In this document: piece after piece, positions 5,397 to 40,175 of the stretch
How positions within the stretch are numbered: position 1 is the first letter of the stretch
Layout of the letters: each line of letters opens with the position of its first letter
From: an uncultured Nitrososphaeraceae archaeon
Lineage (GTDB): Archaea; Thermoproteota; Nitrososphaeria; Nitrososphaerales; Nitrososphaeraceae
Assembly (NCBI GenBank): GCA_963779615.1
Contig: CAVZZA010000005.1
Coordinates: forward strand, 1-64,000
DNA length: 64,000 nt
Direction: 5' to 3'
Made by a program: the position numbers and the translations under genes
Notes under the pieces: generated by a model
Database searches by the model: none
Seen by the model: the letters and a program-made list of their open reading frames with translations, nothing else
Told to the model about the DNA's origin: nothing

Positions 5397-6284
5397 ATTG
5401 TGTGTTAACAGAGAATGATGGATAAATATTCTCAACATTCTTTTGATTAATGTTTATTCAACAAAGGTAATTAAATATTTCGTCACATCAAATATTGAAA
5501 CTGAACTGATAACACTTGAAAATTTGTTAGTTTTCATCTCCGCCAATTAAGTTTGAGTATGAATGTCTTTGTTGTTTATGGTGGAGAAATTCAAAGCACC
5601 CTTTTGCCCTTTACCAACTAACTGAAATGTAAACACGATTAAAGAGTTATCAGGAACCTCAAAATCACTCCTTCCATTAAAGTAAAACCTTTATCGTATG
5701 ATGCAATAATTTGATTCTGTTAAAAGGTATTGATTGAATCTCAGAACCCAAACAAAAGTTCAGTTACCAAACAAAATAAATAATATACAATACTGTAAAA
5801 TATTGGAAAGAGAAAAATAAGAAACGCCGGCCGTTAAGGCATCATTCAGCCAAATGTCCCCTAGACAAGGAATTATATGACAAAAACGATTAAACTTGAT
5901 GGTAACTGTACCATACTTGAATCATAATTTTAATAATTTTTACTTAATTCTTGTATTATTATGGTCTTTTTCTCGATATATAACCAATTGCCAACTTACT
6001 TGGCATATATTCATAAATGATTCTACATTTTTGATCAAAACCAGTCCCTTGTATAGCAGTTGCTTGAGTATACCCTATGCCATCGCTTTATTTTGCAGCA
6101 CCGTTATTAATGCAATAGCTGCCGACAAGCCGAGTGAAAATTTCTTTGCAAATTAAGTTATCTCATTAAATCTAATTTATCTATCACAATTTGATATTAG
6201 GTGTTTGTACAACCTTTTTGTCTTACAATAACAAAAAAAAAGTGGTTGTTTTTGTGTGTTATTTGTTTTGTTGTTTACCTTGAC

Positions 6285-6461
6285 CTAGTCGTTTTTGTGT
6301 GATGCTTTTCCGCCTTCACGGGCCACTCTTTCTTTTGTCTCTTCGTCAGCGGCCTGCAATCCTCTTTTGTCATGAGGAGCTTCTCCTCCTTGCTTGGCTA
6401 CTTTTTCTTTTGTTTTTTCATCAGCAGATGCTAATCCTCTGTTGTCATTATTTGAAACCAT
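6285..6461 (-). CDS. KGG-repeat general stress protein (YciG/GsiB/Con-10-like), 58 aa
   Basis: Manual translation MVSNNDNRGLASADEKTKEKVAKQGGEAPHDKRGLQAADEETKERVAREGGKASHKND*, two RGL..AD..T...VA..GG repeats; below the ORF-track length cutoff. Confidence 0.85.
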   Translation of the reverse strand: MVSNNDNRGLASADEKTKEKVAKQGGEAPHDKRGLQAADEETKERVAREGGKASHKND

Positions 6462-6822
6462 GGTTTTTGTTAGTGATTAACATAATATTTAAAAGATGAA
6501 GCTTATCTTTATTAGCTAATTGTCATTTTTTTTGACCAAAAAAAAGGATATACATGGTTAATTTTAAAAGATATCGTTAGTGTTTCATTTCAGGGAATTT
6601 TGAATAACGTCATAGAAAAAAAGCGAAAGAAAAGAGTAAGGTGAAACATGGCTGTAAAGTTATTCATTCTAATTGCAAGAGATTTATAGCATGAATTCCT
6701 AATGATAATCATGAATAAAATGTATACCCTTGTAACGGTTAGAAGGTTCTTTTCCAATACATAATAATAATTTCAATAACATTGACCCAGATACTGATGG
6801 GTGTCAAAATACAATCCCTGGT

Positions 6823-8923
6823 GTGAACTCAGGCTTTTTAAACAGCAGTGGTTTTTACGGGGACAATAATGATGACGATGGCAGCATACCAACCACAAAG
6901 GTGTATTATGGCCCTCAAAAAGCAGACAGCGCAATCTTAAGGTTCATAGACGGGGCCAAAGTGAAAATAGACTCCTGCCTAAACTCTGTGGCCCCATCCG
7001 TAATCGTCGAGGTTGACGCCATAATGGAGAGAAGGGTTGACGCGGTCAAAAACAGGGGACTCAAGCTCCGATATGTAATCGACATCACAAAGGACAATCT
7101 GGACTATGTCAAGCAGATGCTCACGTTTTCTGAGATTCGGCATTTGGATGGCATGAAGGGAAACTTTGAGGTTGCAGACCAGAGGGAATACGTCGCCGTT
7201 GCCACTCTGCAAGAGGCACAGCCAATACCCCAGCTTCTGTTCAGCAACCTGCCTGAGATTGTTGAGCAGCAGCAGTTTGTGTTTGACAGCTTTTGGAGCA
7301 GGGCAATCCCTGCGGAGCACCGAATAAAGGAGATAGAGGATGGGATTGCCGTGCCCGTCTCAATAGTTTTCTCGGACTTCAAGGACGCAGTCCAAAAGGA
7401 GTTTGAGATGATAAGAAGGGCCAAAAGGGAAATACAGATAATGTACTCCACGGTAAACGCGTTTCACCTGCAGGAGAAAGGCGGCACCCTCCAGCTTTTG
7501 CAGGAAATGGTGGATCGCAACGATGGCCTGAAAATCAGCATCCTCACGCCGATAGACGCCTCGATAAGGGGGTCGCCGTCCCTGAAGCTGCTGACAAAGT
7601 ACAGGCACAACATCCAAATCCAGGACATTGCGCCAAGCATTGGCATCAAGGTAAAGACCCTGGTTGTGGACAGAAAGGAGTCACTGGTGATGGAGCTGAT
7701 ACACACAAGGGAGGAGGTGGCAACAGCCGCAATTGGCTTTTCAATCTACTCCAACAGCGAACCCACGGTTTTATCGTACTCGTCCATTTTTGAGGTCCTG
7801 TATGACCAGAGTGTCCTGTTCCAGCAGCTTGACCAAAACGACAAAATCAAGAGCGAGTTCATAAACGTGGCTGCGCACGAGTTGCGCACACCAATCATGC
7901 CCATCCTAAACGGTGTGGAGATACTGGAGGAGAAGCTTGGTGAAAGAGTTAATGAGTTTAAGCGGGAGCTTGACATGATAACAAGAAACGCGTCCCGGTT
8001 GCAGAACCTGGCCGAAAGCATTCTGCAGGTAAGCAGAATCGAGAGCGGGAGCTTCAGCCTTGACATCCAAAAACACGTGGATTTCCACAACCTGGTTTCC
8101 CAGGTCATAGAGGACGTTGAAAAAAAGTACGCCTACAAGGAGAAGGCAAACAGGGTGTCGATACTGTTTTTGCCGTTTGATGACCGCGGGAACAGCGGCG
8201 GCAGCGGAGCGGTGCAGAGGCAGAGGCAGAAACAAAAGCAGCGGATACAAAGCAAGCGCAAAAAAAACAAGAGCCGCAGCAACCGCATGAGCAACCCATA
8301 AAAAATGGCCCGAATCACCTTCTGTACGTCGACTGCGACTCGCAAAAAATAAGCCAGGTGGTTTTCAACCTGCTGGACAACGCAATGAAGTTTACCACAG
8401 ACGGCAAGATTCTTGTTTCCACGGCAATGACTGGTGGGTCTCCTACTTCTTCCCCTCCATTTCTAGGGAAGGATATCCCAAACACTGATGCAACCGATGG
8501 CTGTAGTGGGGTATAGCAAGTGGCAATGACAGTGATGGGGGTGGTGATGGCGAAAATGGCGGCAGTCATGTTGATGGGCAGAAAAAAGACGCGGTGTTAG
8601 TAACAGTTCAGGACACCGGCGTGGGGATCAACTCCAAAATAAAAGACCAACTGTTTGAGAAATTTGTCACAAGATCAACCCAGGGCACTGGCCTTGGGTT
8701 GTACCTGTCAAAGAAAATTGTTGAGGGACATGGCGGAAGGATATGGTTTGAGGAGACAAACGATGATGGCAACAACAGCAAAAACAGGGATGGGGATATG
8801 CATGATATGCTGCCTCAACTTGGCAATGGCAAAAAAATAGGCGCCACATTCAAATTCAGCATACCCAAATCCCTGTCTGGCCCCTACATCAGTAAAAGGC
8901 CTGCCAAAAAAAATGATGAATAA
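6823..8923 (+). pseudogene. soluble sensor histidine kinase, split by two frameshifts
   Basis: H-box EFINVAAHELRTP; N-box QVVFNLLDNAMKFT in a second frame (~8355-8395); G-boxes VQDTGVGI and GTGLGLYLSKKIVEGHGG in a third frame (ORF 8594-8923); shifts near 8208 and 8510. Confidence 0.85.
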
Positions 8924-8939
8924 TAATACAGATGGGTTG

Positions 8940-8985
<46 letters not shown>

Positions 8986-9097
8986 GAGGCAAAACCAGGG
9001 AAACAGACTGAATGGCAAGGCAGAATCTCCATGCTCTAGGATGATGTTACCATAATTAGGCTACCCGGTACCTTCTCCAGGTACATGCGAATATTCT

Positions 9098-9790
9098 GAG
9101 CCTATCCCAAAATTCAATAGAATTATAGCTTGTATACCTATCTAGTGAGATGTGAACTCATCTCCAAAAGCTAATAAAACACAAAAATGATAAACGTACT
9201 ATCACAAATACTCTAGATGAACTCTGGGATGAGACAAGAGATATTTTATCCAAGGAGAAACCATCTAAAACTGTAGACCGTCCAATCGTATCATTTAGAA
9301 AATCAATGGATGGTGTCCTCTACATCCTAAGAACTGGATGCCAGTGGAAATTGTTACCTTCCGAATATGGCTCTGGTTCCACATGCCATAGACGATTCCA
9401 GGAATGGGTTCAATCAAATGTTTTCAAAAGGATGCGGATTAGGTTGCTAAAAGCATATGATGACAAGAAAGGAGTTAAATGGAACTGGCAATCCATTGAC
9501 AGCATATCGATAAAGTCTCCCTTGGGGGGGGGGCTATGACCGGTAGCAATCCCACAGACAGAGGCAAACTGGGCACAAAAAGGCACATTTTAACGGATAA
9601 AAATGGTATACCCCATTCTGTTGTTATATCATCAGCAAACACTCATGACATAAAGCTAGTAACAGATGTAATGGATAATATGATTATCAAGCGATCATCA
9701 CCATCAACGAAATGCAATTCATCTAGAGTTCACCTGTCATGCAGCATCATCTATAGAAAGATAGTTTTGGAATGGGCCATAATCCACTAA
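9098..9790 (+). mobile_element. truncated IS5-family element related to the copy at 955-1893
   Basis: Left IR GAGCCTATCCCAAAATTC at 9098; ORFs MDGVLYILRTGCQW...KSPLGGG and MTGSNPTDRGKLGTKRHILTD joined at a G10 tract (9524-9533); no right IR seen. Confidence 0.85.
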
Positions 9791-9902
9791 TATTGAGATC
9801 CTAGATAACACTAATCGATGTGTCACTAGCACAATCTTCACCTTTTCAATACATAATGCATATTTGAAAGCAGCAATATGTCGATAACTCGTGGTCATAT
9901 TG

Positions 9903-10169
9903 ATGGGTAATAAAAAAACAATTTTAGTATTGGATTAATCTTATCAGTAACAATAATGGGAGCAATGTTTTTTTCATCCATACCAGCATCTGCTTTTTCC
10001 CAAGCAAATACCACAGCAAGTAATGGTAGGTACAAATACAACCGCAACTCCAGGTTCAAATGATGACACATTGTATGCAAGTACAAATACAACTACGGCT
10101 GCAGGTGTAAATGGCAATTGGTCAAATTCCACAACCCCTTCTAATCCAACATTGGATCAAAGTCAATAA
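9903..10169 (+). pseudogene. small secreted Thr/Asn-rich protein, frameshifted
   Basis: Signal-peptide-like IGLILSVTIMGAMFFSSIPASAFSQ followed by NTT/NWS/NST sequons; needs two frameshifts to join. Confidence 0.35.
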
Positions 10170-12376: not shown

Positions 12377-12727
12377 ACCTTTTCCATCCAAATAAATATG
12401 TCATATTATTATTAGCACTTAAAAAACCTAATAAATAATTCTCTATTATCATCTTGATAAATAAAGAAACCAATTATCTATTGCATGTTAATTTGCATTT
12501 CCTTTTTTCTGCCGAAATGAAACAATCACTTTAATTACATATCGTTTCCACACTATACCAAATAGTGTAGCACAGTAATTCGTTTGATATTACACTTTTT
12601 TCTTAATTGCAAAATAATGATTGCACATCGTTTATCCATTTCAAATTATTTTTTAGGCAATTATAATTATAAAACCAAACTGCGCTTTTCCCTTATTTTC
12701 AAGCTATTGATTAGGGCCATTAAAGTG

Positions 12728-12797
12728 TATGCGAAATTTGCATATATTTCATTTGTAAAACATATATTTTATATTATATATATGCAAATTTCGCATA
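12728..12797. promoter_or_regulatory. pair of TATGC-N7-GCATA palindromic operator-like sites forming a perfect 20-bp inverted repeat
   Basis: TATGCGAAATTTGCATATAT (12728-12747) and its exact reverse complement ATATATGCAAATTTCGCATA (12778-12797), upstream of TATA-like TTTAAATA (12831-12838). Confidence 0.7.
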
Positions 12798-12861
12798 TAT
12801 TTTACATTTTTTTCATATTTTTTAGATAAATTTAAATAGCTTCCGGGGCACACTAAACTAA

Positions 12862-13230
12862 ATGAACAATACAACTACTTCCATGTTAAAAAACCAGCAG
12901 TACTCTGGCTGCATCGAAAGCTGCAACGAATGCATGATGGCCTGTGAGGCCTGCTGCACCGAATGCATGACCACGTCAAACACCCAGATGGCTGGGATGA
13001 TGGGAAGGTGCATGATGATGTGCAGGGACTGCGCCGACATGTGCAGGATGGCATCCATGATGATGTGCAGGGGAAGCGAGTACGCAAAGCAGGTGTGCAA
13101 CATGTGCGCCGACATGTGCGAGGCATGCGCAACGGAGTGCGAGAAGATGGGCGACAAGATGGAGGTGTGCAAGCAGTGCGCCGACATGTGCAGGAAATGC
13201 GCACAGGAATGCAGAAGCATGATGAGGTAA
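12862..13230 (+). CDS. Cys-rich four-helix bundle protein (Csp3/DUF326-like), Met-rich and His-free
   Basis: Repeated CxxxCxxC motifs (CADMC three times); 22 Cys, 23 Met and 0 His in 122 aa; no signal peptide. Confidence 0.9.
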   Translation: MNNTTTSMLKNQQYSGCIESCNECMMACEACCTECMTTSNTQMAGMMGRCMMMCRDCADMCRMASMMMCRGSEYAKQVCNMCADMCEACATECEKMGDKMEVCKQCADMCRKCAQECRSMMR

Positions 13231-14143
13231 CCGGAAAAATCATTACCAAACAGCAACATCAATAAAATCTTTTTTTATAAACATATAATAAAGACAAGTT
13301 TTTACGAATAACAGCATAAATGAACTAAACCACTTTCTCCCAGTTTTCGCAAGGATATTGTAATTACCTAAAGTCATTTGAGACACACTAAAGCTAATCA
13401 TCCATGTGGCATCATGTTTCTATTGACAAACTAGAGGGTTTTCATAGATATTTACAAATGTGAATATTTCCCATCATTTTTAATGCCAATTGAGCATAAA
13501 ATGGTATAAAGTTGCATACATAAATCCTAATTTACATAGAGCCTATAAAAGATATTACTTAATTGATACCATATGGTTATGGTTGATTCAAAAAATATAC
13601 AAAAAAGCGCTAACAGAGGGATTCAGATTGATTCCAATATCAACACTAACCATCCAGACAACGAAAAAAGAATGTCATTAAATAGTGACTGCAATCCCGA
13701 TGTTATCATAGGCAATGGATTGGGACATCTTTATGGATCTTGGTAGTTTGGATATCAATCATATTAAAATACAAAGAACCCAATTCAATATAATTTTTTT
13801 TGTTTATGATTGTACTCAACAGAATTGATAGAGTATATTCAAAACACATTGCAAACCCTTTTAATAATTAGTTAATGATCCATTTTTAATATATATATTT
13901 ACAATATCAAACCATAATTTGTCATACCCTAACATAGTGATATTACCATAAATGATATCAATAAAGCCATATTCCCAAATATCTCATATATCTAAAGCCA
14001 AAACATCACTATTAATTTAATCCAGAGGTCAAAAAATTTGATTAGAGATGGTGTCACAATGCAACATAAACCCCCACTCTAATCAAATGCATGTTTTTCT
14101 TCAACTCAATCGAATTGTAAGTGTTTTTATTAATGGTTATTGG

Positions 14144-15149
14144 TGCTTTGTTGCATGATTCTTAAAAATCTGCAATCATGTGGCACATTTTGTCTAAAAA
14201 GATATCATCTTATTATATAACGATGCTTTTAATATCATTTCTTTTATCATATTCTCAAACTTTACAGAATAAACGTACTCCCCAAACGTCCTCTTTATAC
14301 ACGAAAACACGGTTTCGGCCATCCATCTTTGTCCATAGCTTACGCTATCCTTCCATTTTTTAATATCATTTCTTTGGGCTAACACTGATAGGTTCCTAAG
14401 AAAATGTCCTGTTTTCAATCTGACTCTTGCATTCTTTCTTACTTTAATACAAGGCAGGATTCCATTGTCTGCCATGCATCTAAAAATATCATTATTATCA
14501 TAGGCACCATCAGCAAATAGTTTGGATATTGTTATTTTTCCACTATCAGATTTTATGACATTCTTAACCAATTCAGGTAACGCTTTGCTATCGTGAACAT
14601 GCTCGTCAGTAACCTTCATCGAAAGGATTTTCTTGCTCTTCACGTTTACTGCTATGTGGATTTTCAAATATCTCTTTCTTATACTCCATTTGTCTCTTAA
14701 CCACTGGCCTCTGTTCGTAACCTTGATGCCGGTACTGTCTATTGCAATGATAAGGTAGTCATCTTCAGATTCCATGCTTTTGTTATTGTCTTCTGTTTTC
14801 ATATCCAGCCTGTTTATTCTCCTGCTTATTGTGGTATAATCTGGAATGGAAGGTACTTTCCCTTTCGCATGTCCTTGTGCAATTCCCTCTGTCTGTCTGT
14901 ATGGAAGATGAAAGTACACTTTGGCATAGCCAAGTAAAAGAAGAAATGTATTAGGATAGTGAAATGGCTCACCGATTTTGTCTTTATTCATCTCTTTTAG
15001 CTCTGCATCCCAGTTGTCAATAACGTCAAAACCAATCAGTATTTCACCTCGTCTAACTAGAAATTGGTTGTAGTATGGCCATTTCATATGGTTTACTAGT
15101 TGAGGCTCACTAAATGTATTTGGAAATAGGGGAATCATGCAACAAAGCA
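14144..15149 (-). mobile_element. intact IS5-family element (IS903/ISH1-like)
   Basis: Perfect 18-bp IRs TGCTTTGTTGCATGATTC; perfect 9-bp TSD GGTTATTGG (14135-14143, 15150-15158). Confidence 0.97.
14194..15087 (-). CDS. IS5-family DDE transposase
   Basis: MKWPYYNQFLVRRGE, AIDSTGIKV, ADGAYD, YGQRWMAETVFSCIKR; frame intact. Confidence 0.95.
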   Translation of the reverse strand: MKWPYYNQFLVRRGEILIGFDVIDNWDAELKEMNKDKIGEPFHYPNTFLLLLGYAKVYFHLPYRQTEGIAQGHAKGKVPSIPDYTTISRRINRLDMKTEDNNKSMESEDDYLIIAIDSTGIKVTNRGQWLRDKWSIRKRYLKIHIAVNVKSKKILSMKVTDEHVHDSKALPELVKNVIKSDSGKITISKLFADGAYDNNDIFRCMADNGILPCIKVRKNARVRLKTGHFLRNLSVLAQRNDIKKWKDSVSYGQRWMAETVFSCIKRTFGEYVYSVKFENMIKEMILKASLYNKMISF

Positions 15150-15426
15150 GGTTATTGGCAATATTAAAATTCTCAAGTGTGACTTTTTTACTACATCCAT
15201 ACCATTATTGCACATATATTAAACATCACTCTTCAGACAAAAAACTAACTTTTTTATGTCGATTCTCTTTAATGGTTTTTTTCCATTAGTCCAGTGCTAG
15301 TTTTTTTGAAAAGCATCCCTTAATAAGTAGAAAATATTCAAGACCAGCCATTAACCATTAAACAATAAGCCACAATAACAATTTCCATATATCCATGTTG
15401 TTGAGCCATCACAATATCTTGGGATA

Positions 15427-15530
15427 TACGCAGAATTTGCATGGAGTATGAATGAAAGGTGATGATGGTCAGAATCTTTTCATAATAAATCATATATCAA
15501 TACTTCCAAATATGCAGATACTACATATTT
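15427..15530. promoter_or_regulatory. two further TA(T/C)GC-N7-(G/A)CAT sites upstream of the ComA-HTH gene
   Basis: TACGC-AGAATTT-GCATG (15427-15443) and AAATATGC-AGATACT-ACATATTT (15508-15530, ending 8 nt before the ATG). Confidence 0.5.
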
Positions 15531-15537
15531 TGTTATT

Positions 15538-16524
15538 ATGCTAGACAGTCTAACTGAGAACAGGGTCGACCATAAAAAGCCACGTCATGAGGGAATTACC
15601 TACATAATAGATAAGTTTCAAGGTTTTGACAGACAGAATTTTGAGATAATATCCCCTTTTGTAGACATGGTGAAAATCTATGGAGCTTATCCCCTTTTAG
15701 TATCCGAAGAGCACCTAATAAAGAGGATCGACTATTATCATGGTAATAATGTTTTGGTTTCTACTGGAAGCACGTTAACCGAGTATGCCCTTAGAGAAAA
15801 CGTATTTGAGAAATTCGTTGAAGAATCCAAAATAGCCGGATTTGACATTATAGAAATCAGCGAAAATAACATACATCTTTCCATTGAGGAAAAGAAAAAA
15901 ATTACAAAAATTCTGAAATCCCACGACCTAAGGCACCAGTGGAAGGTAGGCAGAAAGGACCCACGAAGACAACTGACCTTGGATGAGACAATCAAAATGA
16001 TGAATGAAGTTTTGGAGCTAAACCAGGAGAAGATAATACTTGAAGCTAATTTAGGTTATAATGTCGGAATATACGATGAAAAGGGAGACATAAAATGGAA
16101 TATTCTGTCAGCCATTACATCAAAAATCTCACCAAATAACATTATTTTTGAAACACCACTTGAAATTCAACAGGCTGTGTTAATTGCTGAATTTGGGCAA
16201 AGAGTGAATCTTGGAGAGGTAAAACTAGAAAACGTTGCCTCGGTGGAATCCCAAAGAAGAGGATTCCTCTCAAAAGCAAGCTTTAGCATAAACCCAGTAA
16301 AAAAGGGACCCGAAGGTAGTCCCGCTACAAAGTTTATCTACTACATAATCCGCAACAAACACCCTGTGGAACAAAGCGAACTGATTCATATGACTAATCT
16401 TCCAAGAAGAACAGTTCAGGCATCAATTGAAGAGTTAAGAAATCAGGGGCTGATAATGGAAAAAAACAGTCTTGATGACACCAGAAAAAAGGTGTATAAC
16501 TTGGTTAAGGATGAATGGGTATAA
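15538..16524 (+). CDS. phosphosulfolactate synthase (ComA)-like domain fused to a C-terminal winged HTH
   Basis: KPR..G.T.IIDK, EIS, VGRKD, IIFETP..QQ..LI.EFG..VNL give the ComA fold; the tail EQSELIHMTNLPRRTVQASIEELRNQGLI...DTRKKVY is a MarR-type wHTH. Confidence 0.85.
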   Translation: MLDSLTENRVDHKKPRHEGITYIIDKFQGFDRQNFEIISPFVDMVKIYGAYPLLVSEEHLIKRIDYYHGNNVLVSTGSTLTEYALRENVFEKFVEESKIAGFDIIEISENNIHLSIEEKKKITKILKSHDLRHQWKVGRKDPRRQLTLDETIKMMNEVLELNQEKIILEANLGYNVGIYDEKGDIKWNILSAITSKISPNNIIFETPLEIQQAVLIAEFGQRVNLGEVKLENVASVESQRRGFLSKASFSINPVKKGPEGSPATKFIYYIIRNKHPVEQSELIHMTNLPRRTVQASIEELRNQGLIMEKNSLDDTRKKVYNLVKDEWV

Positions 16525-16940
16525 CCTAACACAGATATTTTGGTTACCGATCCAAAGGGCCTTTCACCAAACTCAACACCTTTCAATGATAATAGCAGCA
16601 AAACAAGTAAACAAAAAAAAGAATAAAAGCTTTAGAGCCTAATTTCTTTTAGGCTGAAATTTACCTTTAAATTCAAAATTTCACATTTATTTATAGAATA
16701 AAATTACCAATATCAGTTTTCATCTGGAAAAAAACGACAGTCAAGTTCACCCAAACAAGAATTAGATCACCAAAAAAGCGGAAAAATAATAGATGAAAAT
16801 TAAGAACACGCCTAAAATAGTTTTTATTTAACTATCAATGAGGTCACAAGGATTAATTACAACCCAAACAGTAACAAACCCATTTCAACGGACAGAAAGA
16901 ATCTTGATATACGGGCCCAAAGTTATTAAAAGAGATTTCT

Positions 16941-17885
16941 GTGCATAATTCATCCGAAGATAACAGAAATGTAAAAGATGTTGACAATATTGAAAATAAA
17001 AACAGATTCAAAGAAAAAAAAGCAAAACCTTTGCAAGAAATAGACTCGCCTACCATAGTGGAAAAAAACAAGGTATTGCGTTCCTTTTTTGTCAACAAAC
17101 ATAAAATTAACTTGACCGAATTAGCAAATACAATATTATTCATATCCGTTTTTGTCGGCATTTGGCAACTGGTATATATCATAGGAATATGGCCAAAAAT
17201 TTCTCTACCTTCGCCTTTAATGGTCGCAGAGGCTTTCTATGATCTATTTCAAAATAATACTCTTCTAACAAGTATCGGCATGACTATGTATAGACTTGCC
17301 GTTGGTTTCATCATATCAATAGCAATAGGGATGGCGGTTGGTCTTGCAATGGTAAAATTCGCAGGATTTGGAAAAACAATGGGCTCATTCGCTGTAGGGC
17401 TACAGTCCTTCCCCAGTATTGCATGGGTTCCGTTTGCAATACTACTCATAGGGTTGAATGACGCTGGAATACTGTTTGTTGTAATAATGAGCTCCATATT
17501 TTCTGTGATGATGTCTACATACAGTGGCATTCGCAACATTCCTACAATATACATCCGTGCTGCAAAGAATATGGGTGCAAAAGGGTTACACTTGTTCAGG
17601 CACTTAATGATACCAGCGGCAACTCCAGCCTTGATTACAGGAATAAAACAAGCGTGGTCTTTTGCATGGCACGCCCTAATTGGCGCAGAAATACTTATGG
17701 CTGCCTCGATAGGTATAGGGCATATTCTATTGATTGGGAGAGAGTTTCAATCCATGAGCCAGATAATAGCATCCATGATTACAATATTTGCTTTGGGTAT
17801 GATATTTGATAGAGTGATATTTATGAAAATAGAGGACAAAGTGAGGGAGAGGTGGGGACTAAAACAGGAACAAGACAATGTTTGA
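16941..17885 (+). CDS. NitT/TauT/Ssu-type ABC transporter permease (SsuC-like)
   Basis: LPSP, GLQSFPSIAWVP, EAA-like loop RAAKNMGA, WHALIGAE. Confidence 0.92.
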   Translation: MHNSSEDNRNVKDVDNIENKNRFKEKKAKPLQEIDSPTIVEKNKVLRSFFVNKHKINLTELANTILFISVFVGIWQLVYIIGIWPKISLPSPLMVAEAFYDLFQNNTLLTSIGMTMYRLAVGFIISIAIGMAVGLAMVKFAGFGKTMGSFAVGLQSFPSIAWVPFAILLIGLNDAGILFVVIMSSIFSVMMSTYSGIRNIPTIYIRAAKNMGAKGLHLFRHLMIPAATPALITGIKQAWSFAWHALIGAEILMAASIGIGHILLIGREFQSMSQIIASMITIFALGMIFDRVIFMKIEDKVRERWGLKQEQDNV

Positions 17886-18213: not shown

Positions 18214-19380
18214 GTGGACACAAAAACAAAATTTGGAATTTCTATCGGAATAATTATTGCAGTGGTAATATCATCTCAATCAGATAATCATGGGTTATTC
18301 TCAAATAGTGAAAGTAATACCATAAAAACCGTCAACAACAATGATGCAGAATCAAAAACATTAAGACTTGGATATTTTCCAAATGTAAATCATGCGCAAG
18401 CCATAATTGGCCTGAAAAATGGAGACTTTCAAAAGATAATAGAAGGTAACAATACCAACCAAGGTAAAATAAAGATAAATGAGTTTGTTTTTAGCGCAGG
18501 GCCATCAGCCATAGAAGCGTTATTTGGCGGTCAAATTGATGCGGCATACGTGGGCCCAAACCCCGCAATTAGTGGGTATATCGCGTCGGGTGGAGAAGGA
18601 TTACGAATAGTATCGGGGGTTGCAAGCGGGGGTTCTGTTTTTATAGTAAGAAATGACGCTGGAATAGAATCAGCAAAGGATTTAGGGGGCAAAAAATTCG
18701 CCTCACCCCAACTGGGCAACACACAGGACATATCCTTAAGAAAGTACCTCATCAACAACGGATTTAACACAGTCGAAAATGGCGGGAATGTTACGGTAGC
18801 TGCAATAAAACCAGCAGATATCCTCACCCTCATGTTAAAAAAAGAGGTTGACGGGGCATGGGTTCCTGAGCCCTGGGGGGCAAGGTTAGTAAATGAGGCA
18901 AATGGTAAAGTATTTGTTGATGAACGCGATTTGTGGCCACCTGAAGGCAAATTTGTCACAGCAAACATCATTGTAAGGACCGATTACCTGAAGGAAAACC
19001 CAGATGTGATAGAGAAGCTACTGGAGGCTCATGTGAATGAAACCTTGTGGATTGACGCTCGCTTAAACAGTTTAGATAATGGCACTGCACAAGAAAACAG
19101 CAGCAGTAAGGTTATGGAGGTTGTAAACGCATTTAACGATGGCTTAAAGCAAATAACAGGAAAAACAATCCCTGATAATGAGTTGGAAGAATCGCTGAAA
19201 AGGATGGACTTTACATATGATCCTTTGAAGCAATCCCTCTATAAAATAGGAGATGACGCAAGCAGTTTAGGGTTCATTGGCAAAACCAAAGGAAATCAAT
19301 TAGACATTTCGGGAATATTTGATTTGTCCCTGTTGAATAAAGTACTGCAAGAAAAAGGTCTTGAACCACAAGTACAATAA
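18214..19380 (+). CDS. aliphatic-sulfonate-type ABC substrate-binding protein (SsuA-like), copy 1
   Basis: N-terminal anchor; GYFPNVNHA, AGPSAIEAL, ASPQLGNTQD, WVPEPW. Confidence 0.92.
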   Translation: MDTKTKFGISIGIIIAVVISSQSDNHGLFSNSESNTIKTVNNNDAESKTLRLGYFPNVNHAQAIIGLKNGDFQKIIEGNNTNQGKIKINEFVFSAGPSAIEALFGGQIDAAYVGPNPAISGYIASGGEGLRIVSGVASGGSVFIVRNDAGIESAKDLGGKKFASPQLGNTQDISLRKYLINNGFNTVENGGNVTVAAIKPADILTLMLKKEVDGAWVPEPWGARLVNEANGKVFVDERDLWPPEGKFVTANIIVRTDYLKENPDVIEKLLEAHVNETLWIDARLNSLDNGTAQENSSSKVMEVVNAFNDGLKQITGKTIPDNELEESLKRMDFTYDPLKQSLYKIGDDASSLGFIGKTKGNQLDISGIFDLSLLNKVLQEKGLEPQVQ

Positions 19381-19668: not shown

Positions 19669-20868
19669 ATGAGACATAACACATCAAAGTCAAAACACAA
19701 AGCAAAATCACAATCTGCGCAAGTCAAAAAGTTTGTTCCAATTATCCTCTCGTTGATTTTAACTATCGCAGTATTAGCAAGTTATTATCCAATGGTTAAC
19801 ACATATGCACAAACTGACTCCCAGGCCCCAAAGACGCTAAAAATAGGTTATTTTCCAAACATAAATCACGCCCAAGCAGTTATTGGCCTCAATAATGGAG
19901 ACTTTCAAAAGGTTTTGGGCAATACAAAGGTTGAAACGGTTGTTTTCAATGCAGGCCCATCAGCCATAGAAGCACTATTGGCAAAAAGGATAGATGTCAC
20001 CTACATAGGGCCCAACCCCGCAATCAACGGCTATGTGGCTTCAGACGGGAAAGATGTAAGAGTCATTGCAGGTGCGACTAGTGGAGGGGCATCATTTGTG
20101 GTAAGAAATGACGCTGGAATAGAATCAGCAAAGGATTTAGGGGGCAAAAAATTCGCCTCACCCCAACTGGGCAACACACAGGACATATCCTTAAGAAAGT
20201 ACCTCATCAACAACGGATTTAACACAGTCGAAAATGGCGGTGACGTCACAGTGGTACCTGTGTCAAATGCGGACATAGTCACGCTGTTTTTGAAGAAGGA
20301 AATTGACGGGGCATGGGTTCCTGAGCCATGGGCAACAACACTGGTAAATGAGGCAAATGGTAAAGTATTTGTTGATGAACGCGATTTGTGGCCACCTGAA
20401 GGCAAATTTGTCACAGCAAACATCATTGTAAGGACCGATTACCTGAAGGAAAACCCAGATGTGATAGAGAAGCTACTGGAGGCTCATGTGAATGAAACCT
20501 TGTGGATTAACGACAATAAAGAAAAAGCAATAAACGAATTTAATGCTCAACTCAAAAAGTTAACCGGAAAAACAATTCCACAGGCAGTGTTAGCAAACGC
20601 AGTAACAAAACTAGAGTTCACATACGATCCAATAAAGTTGTCCCTGATTAAAGATGCAAATGATGCCTATGATTTAGGGCTGTTGCAGAAAGGAAAAGAA
20701 CGACCAACCTTAACGAATATCTATGACTTGGCAGTATTGGACAAGGTTCTTGCTAAGAAAGGCCTTGATACCATCAACAGCGCAAATATTGGGTCACCCA
20801 TCAACACCGGCAATAAAACCTCATCTAACGGTACATCCGGTGATGCTTTGTCAGATATAGTCACATAG
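19669..20868 (+). CDS. aliphatic-sulfonate-type ABC substrate-binding protein (SsuA-like), copy 2
   Basis: Same motifs as copy 1, with a signal/TM segment. Confidence 0.92.
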   Translation: MRHNTSKSKHKAKSQSAQVKKFVPIILSLILTIAVLASYYPMVNTYAQTDSQAPKTLKIGYFPNINHAQAVIGLNNGDFQKVLGNTKVETVVFNAGPSAIEALLAKRIDVTYIGPNPAINGYVASDGKDVRVIAGATSGGASFVVRNDAGIESAKDLGGKKFASPQLGNTQDISLRKYLINNGFNTVENGGDVTVVPVSNADIVTLFLKKEIDGAWVPEPWATTLVNEANGKVFVDERDLWPPEGKFVTANIIVRTDYLKENPDVIEKLLEAHVNETLWINDNKEKAINEFNAQLKKLTGKTIPQAVLANAVTKLEFTYDPIKLSLIKDANDAYDLGLLQKGKERPTLTNIYDLAVLDKVLAKKGLDTINSANIGSPINTGNKTSSNGTSGDALSDIVT

Positions 20869-39395: not shown

Positions 39396-40175
39396 TTATT
39401 TTTTTGTCTGAATTATCTCTGTTTTTAATTCATCCAAAACCAATCTGTTATATTCAAATAAATTAGAATCTTCAGATAACCTGGGCCTCCGATAATCAAT
39501 CACTATCTCCTTCTTTACGGATGCAGGTCTTTTGGTGAAAACCACAACTTTATCGCCTAGACAAATTGATTCGGATATGTTATGGGTTACAAATATTATC
39601 GTTTTTCTTGTTTTAGCCCATATCAATTGAAGCTCCACTAACAATAGATCCCGAGTTTGAGAATCTAAAGCAGCAAATGGCTCATCCATTAACAAAATAT
39701 CGGGATCCATGGATAACGCACGAGATATAGCAACTCTCTGCTTCATGCCGCCTGAGAGTTGATAGGTATAGGATTTAGCAAATTTGCCTAGATCCATCAT
39801 ATCTAGGTAATGCATAGCAATTTTTCTTCTTTTTTCTTTTTCGACGCCTACCATCTTTAATCCAAATTCAACGTTATCTATAACACTTAACCATGGAAAC
39901 AGGGCATTTTCTTGAAATACCATTATTCTGTCGGGTCCTGTTTCGAAAATCGGTCTTCCATTTAAAACCATTTCCCCATCCGAAGGCTTTTCCAATCCTG
40001 CAATTATATTTAAAAGTGTAGACTTTCCACAGCCGGACGGTCCAACAAAGCAAACAAATTGACCTTCTTCAATTGATAAATTTACATCACTAACCGCCAA
40101 AACTTTATTTTTTTCACCCTTATTGCCATTAAGGGAAAATGTTTTAGATATGTGTTTAATTTCTAATTTACTCAA
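39396..40175 (-). CDS. NitT/TauT-type ABC ATPase (SsuB-like)
   Basis: GPSGCGKST, FQENALFPW, LSGGMKQR, MDEPFAALD, VTH. Confidence 0.94.
   Translation of the reverse strand: MSKLEIKHISKTFSLNGNKGEKNKVLAVSDVNLSIEEGQFVCFVGPSGCGKSTLLNIIAGLEKPSDGEMVLNGRPIFETGPDRIMVFQENALFPWLSVIDNVEFGLKMVGVEKEKRRKIAMHYLDMMDLGKFAKSYTYQLSGGMKQRVAISRALSMDPDILLMDEPFAALDSQTRDLLLVELQLIWAKTRKTIIFVTHNISESICLGDKVVVFTKRPASVKKEIVIDYRRPRLSEDSNLFEYNRLVLDELKTEIIQTKK

Follow-up and report, generated by a model that had tools for sequence, protein, structure and literature searches.

Positions 15538 to 16524 (plus strand) of the 64,000-nt stretch of archaeal DNA analysed here (the window) encode a protein of 328 aa that pipelines would name phosphosulfolactate synthase (ComA). 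The first-pass annotation had predicted this label, and public sources indeed apply it to the relatives of the protein; hundreds of archaeal genes in ammonia oxidisers, Thermoplasmata, and Korarchaeota bear it. It implies synthesis of coenzyme M or sulfolactate in organisms without any sign of the pathway. Is the product an enzyme of this kind, or does its ComA barrel serve another function? Our analysis favors the second answer: with a probability of roughly 60%, the protein is a local transcription factor that senses a ligand and is probably linked to sulfur. Next to nothing is known so far about the regulation of nutrient uptake in ammonia-oxidising archaea, and the locus offers a concrete candidate regulator together with a putative operator and regulon.

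Domain architecture and predicted fold

The protein is bipartite, and the initial description of a ComA-like domain joined to a C-terminal winged helix-turn-helix (wHTH) in one open reading frame was correct. Residues 12-244 (15571..16269, plus strand) match the Pfam ComA family PF02679 over practically its full length (profile positions 4-241 of 243; E 1.2e-61; 208.8 bits at a cut-off of 25.2). The AF2 model of this part (pLDDT 89.6) is a TIM barrel of eight beta-alpha units, and its best Foldseek match is the Methanocaldococcus jannaschii enzyme 1qwg (E 2.9e-21), on which it can be superposed with a target TM of 0.85. The NCBIfam equivalog model for ComA, TIGR03849, scored 163.1 bits, below its cut-off of 280. 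At least 120 homologues of about 328 aa were found among the matches listed. An Rfam search of the window gave no match.

The barrel is followed by a linker (residues 245-261; 16270..16320, plus strand), which follows an RRGF motif and is modelled with lower confidence (pLDDT blocks of 68 and 67 for residues 241-260). The remaining segment, residues 262-322 (16321..16503, plus strand), was modelled with pLDDT blocks of 86-96 as three helices (262-274, 279-286, and 290-302) and a beta-hairpin wing (strands 306-310 and 318-322), with a recognition helix around LPRRTVQ that is also found in the Thermoplasmata fusions. The first-pass annotation had assigned this domain to the MarR type. The modelled wHTH fold and a weak resemblance to the SlyA/MarR regulator 4mnu (E 0.006) agree with this, but all profile matches of the C-terminus, including HTH_27 (E 6.6e-4), TrmB, and MarR_2, stay below threshold. 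HTH_27, the best Pfam wHTH match, reached 20.4 bits at a cut-off of 22.2, MsvR (NCBIfam) 23 bits at a cut-off of 220, and the Pfam family 'wHTH-PRTase associated' was matched faintly (E 0.06). Since no Pfam or NCBIfam wHTH score exceeds its curated cut-off, the protein falls outside every named wHTH family.

These low scores would suit an ordinary, divergent metabolic enzyme whose winged helix serves assembly or protein contacts instead of DNA binding and whose gene neighborhood reflects shared metabolism. A similar wHTH (37% identity) is carried by a NAD kinase homologue in the host and many related genomes, so the domain is not confined to obvious regulators in this lineage. But the host genome encodes an additional, unfused NAD kinase, and the fused form may therefore be a regulator itself. 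Moreover, the wHTH is the most conserved segment of the protein and is basic (pI 9.06, compared to 5.87 for the barrel), and the motif of its recognition helix has been conserved between Thermoplasmata and ammonia oxidisers. At dN/dS values of about 0.01 (wHTH) and 0.02 (barrel), purifying selection on the wHTH is as strong as on the barrel. Together with the gene arrangement described below, this makes a purely structural role of the winged helix highly improbable.

When modelled as a trimer, the protein reached an ipSAE of 0.88 (best control, 0.00). Of 30 solved one-chain pairs, 20 attain the mark that it passed, as does 1 of 23 single chains; the model may owe this pass to a similar trimer that has already been solved. 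At least 67% of the contacts agreed between the runs, with partner pLDDT values of at least 82. The RRGF motif contacts the adjacent subunit in this model. Among metatranscriptome contigs, X1 record 2 (541 nt) spans positions 16039-16582 with 26 letters different. Such contigs derive from relatives at 90-95% identity, and carry-over of DNA into the libraries is possible, so at most they hint at transcription of related genes in soil.

A remodelled pocket

Pairwise alignments to the two solved enzymes, 1qwg and 1u83 (Bacillus subtilis), confirmed all of the motif changes noticed initially. KFGWGT is replaced by KIYGAY, PGGTL by TGSTL, EISDG/EISNG by EISEN, EVGKK/EVGSK by KVGRK, EGRESG/EARESG by EAN-LGY, and RRGLR/RLGLRSDT by RRGFLSKA. 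As had also been proposed, conserved acidic, arginine, and glycine positions are lost while the fold is kept: the canonical residues G78, G110, E136, R171, N227, R244, and T247 (numbering of the window protein) are changed to S, N, K, N, E, L, and A, respectively. The canonical residue occupies these seven positions in 83-98% of 73 unfused ComA representatives and in both solved enzymes. All derived positions lie at the C-terminal ends of the barrel strands in the AF2 model.

We then asked how the replacement residues are distributed. The residues of the remodelled pocket are Y48, S78, N110, K136, N171, E227, and F243; except for Y48 (108 of 110), each is invariant in all 110 members of the clade. 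Few unfused ComA proteins share them: the residue of the window protein was found in only one of the 73 unfused representatives at each of positions 78, 136, 171, and 227 and in three at position 110, and 49 of the 73 rows show none of the eight deviations. Judging from these alignments, the substitutions are fixed across the clade and are not the result of random decay. The substitutions are real, but eroded, as the motifs had been called, is a misleading word for residues that are fixed.

A number of family-invariant pocket residues are kept (K14, R16, D25, D43, K46, E82, E106, K140, E169, E205, Q211/Q212, and R240), so the protein may have an altered catalytic activity. The barrel could belong to a trigger enzyme that still catalyses the addition of a nucleophile, be it sulfite or another, to PEP or a similar enol-acid, with the wHTH coupling this flux to transcription. 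Such an enzyme would possibly be Mg-free, because Lys136 replaces a glutamate. The retention of most family-invariant residues fits this idea; among them are three of the four strand-end glutamates and the lysine equivalent to M. jannaschii K137. So does the fixation of the replacements, which show no drift. On the other hand, seven near-invariant positions on which both solved enzymes agree are altered, with a reversal of charge at two. Further evidence on both sides comes from the relatives and from the host genome.

Origin of the fusion

In a tree based on the barrel only, 36 unfused rows fall on one side of a branch with an SH-aLRT value of 99, and the clade of the window protein is nested among the fused forms. 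All seven canonical residues are kept in 8 of 21 fused representatives, including the fusions from Korarchaeota and Thermoplasmata. Of 401 genomes searched across the phylum for such canonical-site fusions, only 4 gave a match, three with members of the window protein's own family and one with an unfused form; the assignment to Korarchaeota and Thermoplasmata therefore comes from source names alone. Based on this tree, the ComA-wHTH fusion is an old archaeal family, and the clade of the ammonia oxidisers is derived from fusions with canonical residues. We propose a single origin of the fusion in archaea, from an ancestor combining the enzyme with a wHTH.

About 8 of the 21 fusion representatives thus have an intact-looking active site, and for those relatives trigger enzyme is the better word. 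Their existence lends some weight to a catalytic role of the window protein as well, as does the setting of the Thermoplasmata members, which lie beside metabolic-looking genes: a short-chain dehydrogenase and a type I phosphodiesterase at three of seven loci each, and ATP sulfurylase at one of seven. Members with an intact, a partly changed, and a fully remodelled site on one tree would form a natural series leading from enzyme to sensor.

The host genome and the coenzyme M pathway

The host, an ammonia oxidiser from soil, belongs to Ca. Nitrosocosmicus, and its genome is 92.5% complete. A check for a separate canonical comA had been suggested; the PF02679 profile search of this genome returned a single match, which is the gene described here, and hence no second ComA homologue. 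Likewise, neither ComB (PF04029) nor ComC (PF02615) was matched in the 92.5% complete genome. Ammonia oxidisers are not coenzyme M users. The absence of matches to the downstream enzymes speaks against a barrel that is still catalytic, and so does the fact that its gene is surrounded here by genes for transporters and not for enzymes. Weighing these points against the retained residues and the canonical-site relatives, we consider a trigger enzyme unlikely for the window protein. In the ammonia-oxidiser clade, the label phosphosulfolactate synthase is probably wrong. A ligand-sensing transcription factor remains our preferred reading.

Gene neighborhood

Downstream of the regulator gene, the window contains a gene for an ABC permease of the NitT/TauT family (16941..17885, plus strand; BPD_transp_1), which is SsuC/SaoP-like but stays below the cut-offs of both the SaoP and the SsuC models. 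It is followed by two genes for SsuA-type substrate-binding proteins on the same strand. The first (18214..19380) is SsuA-like (NMT1_2, E 9e-33; TIGR01728, 152.5 bits at a cut-off of 163.5), and its nearest solved proteins bind taurine, bicarbonate, or nitrate, all of them weak matches. The second (19669..20868; NMT1_2) is a member of the SsuA family proper, with 204.2 bits for TIGR01728 SsuA_fam and thus above 163.5. Neither an SsuD above the cut-off nor TauD was found, so the word sulfonate rests solely on the family-level similarity of the substrate-binding proteins.

On the other side of the regulator gene, a DUF326 gene (PF03860; 12862..13230, plus strand), a candidate member of the regulon, encodes a protein of 122 aa with 22 cysteines and 23 methionines. 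Between the two lies the gene for an IS5-family transposase (14194..15138, minus strand; NF033579, 258 bits at a cut-off of 140). Relatives have an ABC ATPase-permease pair upstream in place of this transposase; the host genome has such a pair on contig C4.

To see how far this arrangement is conserved, we surveyed 301 Nitrososphaeria genomes, which yielded 50 intact copies of the gene from 12 genera. A gene for an SsuA-family substrate-binding protein lies within 5 kb of 39 of these copies, a linkage seen in 10 of the 12 genera; 24 of the 39 are direct neighbors (within 500 bp), and 19 are divergently oriented. The intergenic gaps of the divergent copies measure 95-1281 bp (at most 292 bp in 17 of 19) and contain the palindromes described in the following section, a layout that argues against a winged helix without a role in DNA binding. 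At 16 of 17 orthologous loci, a permease gene is located within 1.2 kb of the regulator, and in another subclade a rhodanese gene lies directly upstream at six of eight loci. Phyletic co-occurrence with the substrate-binding protein was considered as evidence but proved uninformative, because SsuA-type proteins are present in 220 of the 301 genomes, most of which are without the regulator.

Candidate operator and putative regulon

Across genera, the region just upstream of the gene contains an inverted repeat with the half-site TATGCA and a 5-nt spacer. In the window, this candidate operator (O1, 15508..15530) ends 8 nt before the ATG. It was selected by a blind inverted-repeat search, lies within a block conserved in the orthologous promoters, and has counterparts in 25 of 29 promoters when searched by regular expression. 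We built a centred 23-nt matrix from 12 promoter sites of other genera and used the reversed genome as a null. O1 scored 13.9-14.1 bits with this matrix, and a second candidate operator located 92 nt before the ATG (O2, 15424..15446) scored 20.6 bits. Two more copies, 53 nt apart, precede the DUF326 gene (12725..12800), with 17.5 bits for positions 12725-12747 and 24.0 bits for 12778-12800.

In the whole genome, 22 matches exceeded 15 bits compared to one in the reversed genome, and 14, including O2, exceeded 17 bits compared to none. Eleven of these 14 are located upstream of open reading frames: seven precede DUF326 genes (at least four paralogous copies, so that these promoters are not independent), and the other four precede the gene described here, the ABC ATPase gene on contig C4, a 74-aa open reading frame, and an unannotated one at a contig end. 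Corresponding promoters with a site also occur at the loci L012, L015, L018, and L035. In the window, the permease gene and the genes for the substrate-binding proteins are not preceded by any site above 9 bits, and the 65% and 70% paralogue groups lack the palindrome in their own promoters. The palindrome could also be the site of another regulator. When recognition helices and promoter palindromes of the paralogues were compared for covariation, the helices differed at only two to three positions. The palindrome fits a dimer better than a trimer.

Two other candidates were discarded. A TATATCAATA-like block is conserved in the promoters of the regulator and the permease, but with 48 genomic occurrences against 40.6 expected it is not specific and probably represents a core promoter element. 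In the window, a strict pattern search gave seven matches compared to 3.8 expected, was equalled by 15 of 100 shuffles, and missed the true sites.

The strongest palindrome matches of the genome are the paired sites before DUF326 paralogues, and a DUF326 gene with a palindrome is found near the regulator at L012 and L035 too. DUF326 proteins are also known to store copper, which would allow for a metal-related regulon, and ammonia oxidisers depend on copper. The protein might accordingly be a regulator of copper homeostasis with the DUF326 genes as its main targets, the link to the ABC transporter being secondary and the sensed signal unrelated to sulfonates. But the neighbor conserved over 10 genera is the SsuA-family substrate-binding protein and not DUF326, a rhodanese adjoins the regulator in another subclade, and the ligands of the ancestral fold are sulfite and a sulfonate product. 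We therefore regard a primary function in copper homeostasis as very unlikely.

Proposed mechanism

Under the preferred reading of a sulfur-linked transcription factor, the protein would be a one-component regulator with the ComA TIM barrel as its sensor and the C-terminal wHTH as its output domain. In the ammonia oxidisers, the pocket of the ancestral enzyme appears to have been rebuilt and then frozen: the near-invariant glutamate at the end of strand 5 would have become lysine, the Arg-Glu pair after strand 6 Asn-Leu, and the asparagine after strand 8 glutamate, and two glycine positions as well as the C-terminal arginine and threonine would have been replaced. The barrel presumably no longer supplies phosphosulfolactate to any pathway. 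We infer that it binds a small anion instead, with a sulfur oxyanion or a C2/C3 sulfonate as the likeliest candidates. The subunits probably associate via ComA-like trimer contacts, and occupancy of the ligand site at the subunit interface may be relayed through the linker after RRGF to the wHTH. The latter would bind TATGCA repeats with a 5-nt spacer at its own promoter and, in addition, at the promoters of a NitT/TauT-type ABC ATPase-permease operon and of the genes for the Cys/Met-rich DUF326 proteins. As a result, sulfonate-type uptake and sulfur-rich proteins would be tuned to the sulfur status of the cell.

A broader scenario is conceivable, to which we give only tentative credence. The fusions might constitute an ancient, unrecognised group of TIM-barrel-sensor regulators that at first sensed sulfite and PEP in a catalysis-coupled manner, as the members from Korarchaeota and Thermoplasmata might still do. 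Those of soil ammonia oxidisers might then have become non-catalytic, trimeric master regulators of sulfur status that sense a sulfur oxyanion or a sulfonate where the subunits meet and control sulfonate import and Cys/Met-rich proteins via paired TATGCA-N5-TGCATA operators.

Comparison with known systems

Enzyme folds have been turned into sensors of transcription factors before, as in the ROK repressors (NagC/Mlc), MocR/GabR, archaeal TrmB, and the PRTase-wHTH protein GfcR, and PutA combines a TIM-barrel enzyme with a DNA-binding domain. Like the protein described here, these regulators keep a ligand pocket and wire it to a helix-turn-helix, and they usually control neighboring transport or catabolic genes. 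Their sensor folds are unrelated, however, and the window protein differs in the C-terminal position of its wHTH and in its predicted trimer. To our knowledge, and in the literature searched, ComA barrels have not been described as part of a regulator. In bacteria, the ssu and tau operons are controlled by CysB and Cbl. The proposed logic is alike, with a small sulfur metabolite setting the expression of an SsuABC-type importer, but CysB and Cbl belong to the LysR type, sense through periplasmic-binding-protein-like domains, and have no homology to the window protein.

The closest known relatives are the ComA proteins themselves, i.e. M. jannaschii MJ0255 (1qwg), B. subtilis YitD (1u83), and bacterial XcbB, which share the Pfam family, the TIM-barrel fold, and many pocket residues. 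The window protein is set apart from them by its additional wHTH, the replacement of seven near-invariant residues, the score below the equivalog cut-off, and a genomic context with transporter neighbors and with ComB and ComC not found in the host genome. Its predicted trimer contacts resemble those of the ComA homotrimer. ComA has been reported to be a homotrimer (10.1101/2024.10.15.618377), and the role of XcbB is treated in PMC9457059. HSA32 is another ComA homologue with a role other than coenzyme M synthesis, and no enzymatic function has been established for it (10.1101/2024.10.15.618377). This eukaryotic protein lacks a DNA-binding domain and acts together with the chaperone HSP101, and it represents a separate case of re-use of the ComA fold.

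Domain architecture and selection

The gene at 15538-16524 (+ strand), embedded in DNA of 33-36% G+C, encodes a protein of 328 aa. Pfam assigns a complete ComA (phosphosulfolactate synthase) domain to residues 12-244 (E 1.2e-61, 208.8 bits, profile positions 4-241 of 243), while all winged-helix matches at residues 267-323 were sub-threshold (HTH_27, E 6.6e-4; TrmB, 1.6e-3; MarR_2, 0.015). Against the NCBI curated archaeal ComA equivalog, the protein reached 163.1 bits, well under the cut-off of 280. A confident AlphaFold2 model (mean pLDDT 89.6; input alignment of 74 rows) consists of eight beta-alpha units spanning residues 21-240, a linker of weaker confidence (241-261) and a classic winged helix with three helices and two strands (262-322). 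The winged-helix tail proposed in the first-pass annotation is recovered in the model, with family scores remaining sub-threshold. The top Foldseek matches were both solved phosphosulfolactate synthases, M. jannaschii ComA (1qwg; E 2.9e-21, TM 0.85) and B. subtilis YitD (1u83; E 5.7e-13), together with a designed cage derived from one of them. The tail by itself showed weak similarity to the SlyA/MarR regulator 4mnu (E 0.006) and is basic (pI 9.06, versus 5.87 for the barrel). Relative to the nearest orthologues, dN/dS amounts to ∼0.02 in the barrel and ∼0.01 in the winged helix, at saturated synonymous sites. We have hardly any doubt that this fusion of a ComA fold and a winged helix (ComA-wHTH) is maintained by selection.

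The pocket residues are replaced and fixed

The first-pass annotation had described the enzyme motifs as eroded, with KFGWGT, PGGTL, EISDG, EVGKK, EGRESG and RRGLRGDT of ComA reading KIYGAY, TGSTL, EISEN, KVGRK, EANLGY and RRGFLSKA. Every one of these substitutions was reproduced in alignments to M. jannaschii ComA and B. subtilis YitD. A profile-free exhaustive search returned 682 proteins at E ≤ 1e-3, the best 150 of which were listed, and the window protein was aligned with 93 representatives of 235-360 aa drawn from them (21 rows with a C-terminal extension, including the window protein, and 73 without). The canonical residues G78, G110, E136, R171, N227, R244 and T247 are each present in 83-98% of the 73 unfused rows. 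The window protein instead has S, N, K, N, E, L and A, respectively; its residue was found in 1/73 unfused rows each at 78, 136, 171, 227 and 247, and in 3/73 at 110. No deviation at any of eight scored positions was seen in 49 of the 73 unfused rows, and a single one deviates at all eight; this row probably stems from the window's own clade and is truncated. The substitutions are therefore uncommon in ordinary ComA proteins, which answers a question raised together with the motif list.

Within the clade (110 full-length members of 320-370 aa and 58-99% identity, namely the window protein and 109 of 120 listed relatives), S78, N110, K136, N171, E227 and F243 do not vary, and all but two members have Y48 (108/110). 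"Eroded" is therefore misleading, as the replacements are fixed across the clade and do not represent decay. In the AlphaFold2 model, each of these positions sits where a barrel strand ends C-terminally or in the loop directly after it; TIM-barrel active sites are located at strand C-terminal ends. Many anion- and metal-site residues are kept (K14, R16, D25, D43, K46, E82, E106, K140, E169, E205 and R240), others are swapped, and the charge changes (E to K, R to N, E to L, N to E and R to L) cancel by count over six positions. We read these patterns as a pocket that may have been re-specified for another small anion, rather than abandoned.

Predicted assembly

A three-copy model gave an ipSAE of 0.88, compared to 0.00 for the best of three controls, with a contact agreement between runs of at least 67% and a partner pLDDT of at least 82. 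The ipSAE mark is reached by 20/30 proteins solved as one-chain pairs versus 1/23 solved as single chains. The confident interface comprises residues 26-38, 49-63 and 79-100 of one chain and 230-244 of the next, with the winged helix outside; in this prediction, the altered KIYGAY loop meets the altered RRGFL motif. ComA is known to form a homotrimer (10.1101/2024.10.15.618377). Since this trimer is already solved, the good score of the model may reflect memory of it.

No partner enzymes of the coenzyme M pathway found

By the source names of close homologues and of 43 related genome loci, the host genome belongs to Candidatus Nitrosocosmicus, a soil ammonia-oxidising archaeon of the family Nitrososphaeraceae (3.17 Mb, 5 contigs, 92.5% complete). 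The ComA-wHTH gene is its sole PF02679 match, and neither ComB (PF04029) nor ComC (PF02615) was matched in this 92.5%-complete genome, while control genomes did match. A separate canonical comA, for which the first-pass annotation had proposed to look, is therefore not present, and no user of the product was found. The ComA-wHTH protein is very probably not an enzyme of the coenzyme M pathway.

History of the fusion family

Down to 27% identity, there are fused forms of 320-340 aa whose alignment extends across the winged helix. A search with P0138, a canonical-looking fusion protein, returned 1113 proteins at E ≤ 1e-20. The named relatives among the 120 listed stem from Korarchaeota and Thermoplasmata MAGs and are all called phosphosulfolactate synthase, the label that had been anticipated for such proteins. 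The consensus of the P0138-type fusions retains every canonical barrel motif, and the recognition-helix motif LPRRTVQ is common to them and the window protein. In a quick maximum-likelihood tree (barrel columns only, 68 rows, SH-aLRT support only, drawn with midpoint rooting), a branch with a support of 99 sets apart 36 unfused rows from all 31 fused rows and one unfused row nested among the latter. The window's clade is nested within the fused forms, beside two partly changed representatives. All seven canonical residues are kept in 8/21 fused representatives, and the rest are changed to differing degrees. Read most simply, these sequences would go back to a single ancient joining of a winged helix to an active enzyme, after which the pocket was remodelled or eroded in several lineages. 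The neighbours of seven Thermoplasmata-type metagenome loci, which are 68-100% identical to each other and thus not independent, look metabolic (short-chain dehydrogenase in 3/7, type I phosphodiesterase in 3/7, ATP sulfurylase in 1/7).

A second, very divergent ComA-wHTH paralogue (39% identity, long branch) was observed in two loci (L030:10166-11152 and L032:5061-6011), directly upstream of a gene for an SsuA-family substrate-binding protein (SBP); the locus also holds a window-type copy and a rhodanese.

Conserved transporter neighbourhood

In the window, the ComA-wHTH gene is followed by three transporter genes, encoding a NitT/TauT-type permease (16941-17885), an SsuA-like binding protein (18214-19380) and a second binding protein (19669-20868; 204.2 bits, over the curated SsuA-family cut-off of 163.5), and then by ribosomal protein genes. 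An IS5 transposase gene (14194-15138, - strand) lies just upstream. Among 17 related loci of at least 76% identity, the permease is found within 1.2 kb in 16, and a matching ABC ATPase directly upstream in five. In a subclade of ∼70% identity, a two-domain rhodanese is encoded ∼270 bp upstream on the same strand in 6/8 loci, and ABC parts within 5 kb in 3/8. No transporter was found near the 11 loci of a ∼65% identity paralogue group.

We surveyed 301 Nitrososphaeria genomes, drawn evenly from the class, which contain 50 intact full-length copies. By SBP coordinates from the listed matches (95 weaker ones lay outside) and with related genomes not being independent, an SsuA-family SBP gene lies within 5 kb of 39/50 copies, 24 of them within 500 bp, and 19/50 are transcribed divergently from it. 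The 39 linked copies span 10 of the 12 genera possessing the gene. With the SBP occurring in 220/301 genomes, co-occurrence says nothing here and the information comes from adjacency alone. In one of the genomes (G291, contig C40, 13764-15714), a stop codon splits the ComA-wHTH gene and five stops interrupt the divergent SBP gene beside it, suggestive of a joint loss. Within the window's own family, nearly every genome has the full-length gene, and in the sister family few do; tallies including winged-helix-only matches are 36/39 versus 15/180 genomes.

In relatives (L014), ATPase, permease, regulator, permease and two SBP genes lie in this order in one place. The host genome has an ATPase-permease pair on contig C4 (333427-335123), beside an IS240-type fragment and a gene of the Cys/Met-rich DUF326 family, and insertion sequences appear to have broken up its transporter locus. 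The window also encodes a second ABC ATPase of the NitT/TauT type (39471-40172, - strand; 49% identity to the regulator-linked ATPase of relatives), which hints at a further transporter of the same family.

A candidate operator and regulon

Orthologous promoters have a conserved block in common within the last 50 nt 5' of the start codon. In G+C-richer genomes with a divergent SBP gene, this block is an inverted repeat (half-site TATGCA, 5-nt spacer) ending 7-18 nt before the start codon, with more half-sites toward the SBP gene. When the best 8+5+8 inverted repeat was sought blindly, this site or a neighbouring register came out in 17/28 promoters, by our reading, and a short regular expression found it in 25/29. 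A matrix from 12 sites, none of the window's genus, was used to scan the host genome, with the reversed genome as null. It gave 50 matches above 11 bits (null 8), 22 above 15 bits (null 1) and 14 above 17 bits (null 0).

Eleven of the 14 matches above 17 bits are followed by an ORF start within 350 nt, and the remaining three are inside long ORFs. Seven of the 11 precede paralogous DUF326 genes, four of which were mapped with paired sites; one more match of this DUF326 set precedes a short ORF at a contig end. The others are located before the ComA-wHTH gene (15424-15446), 57 nt before the ATPase-permease operon on contig C4, before a 74-aa zinc-ribbon ORF and before an unannotated ORF at a contig end. 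The candidate nearest the ComA-wHTH start codon (15508-15530) scores 13.9-14.1 bits, and six of the seven window matches above 9 bits fall within 12725-15530. In other species, the site also precedes a DUF326-like gene, the ATPase and the regulator (loci L012, L015 and L018), and DUF326 in L035, with no match above 13 bits in the reversed loci. The promoters of the 65% and 70% paralogues themselves lack the site, and in the window, neither the permease gene nor the SBP genes have one.

The window's DUF326 gene (12862-13230, + strand; candidate sites 12725-12747 and 12778-12800) encodes 122 aa with 22 Cys and 23 Met, i.e., 37% sulfur-containing residues. Near-identical paralogues number at least four in the genome, and two palindromes lie upstream of each of the four that were mapped, ending ∼61 and ∼114 nt before the start (61-62 and 114-115 nt where both were found). 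DUF326 could serve as a sulfur-rich store or in copper storage. At the same 62-nt spacing, the palindrome also precedes the ∼74-aa zinc-ribbon ORF (contig C5, 498298-498606; L149:4383-4607), and a similar small ORF adjoins the DUF326 gene in L012 (L012:1995-2216).

We assign the palindrome to the ComA-wHTH protein because this is the only transcription factor encoded in the recurring locus, and give an even chance to its being the operator. One site overlaps the stretch that separates the promoter block from the start codon, which by the usual archaeal pattern would hint at possible autorepression.

A putative sensor-regulator

Taken together, the initial observation is confirmed and its interpretation as a sensor or regulator is supported, and the reading is extended by the history of the family, a conserved neighbourhood of putative target genes and a candidate operator with its regulon. 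We favor, at a probability of roughly 0.6, that ComA-wHTH acts as a DNA-binding local regulator of an SsuABC-like system, judging from sequence and gene context. Ancestral ComA ligands are sulfite, PEP and a C3 sulfonate; based on these and on the conserved SsuA-type importer and rhodanese neighbours, we tentatively guess that a sulfur oxyanion or sulfonate might be the ligand. Bound at the subunit interface, it would act on the linker starting just after the RRGF motif, which would then pass the signal to the winged helix.

By design, the protein comes closest to enzyme-derived sensors such as the ROK repressors, MocR, TrmB, GfcR and PutA. For non-enzymatic use of the ComA fold, the nearest precedent is plant HSA32 (10.1101/2024.10.15.618377). 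No description of a ComA-wHTH fusion or ComA-type regulator was found in the search listings and abstracts covered; the fusion may nonetheless have been described elsewhere.

Other features of the window and genome

No Rfam family was matched anywhere in the window. Its G+C content is higher at 6000-10000 (0.43 versus ∼0.33), where a 492-aa ORF is located (6823-8301). Outside the window, contig C4 of the host genome encodes an NAD kinase homologue (PF20143, E 1e-18) with a C-terminal winged helix (228547-229551; L045:1048-2052, + strand); a second, unfused NAD kinase homologue is also present in the genome. The winged helix of the former is 37% identical to that of ComA-wHTH, and the fusion recurs in many Nitrososphaeria genomes, those of the sister family included; it may represent a second enzyme-derived regulator family.
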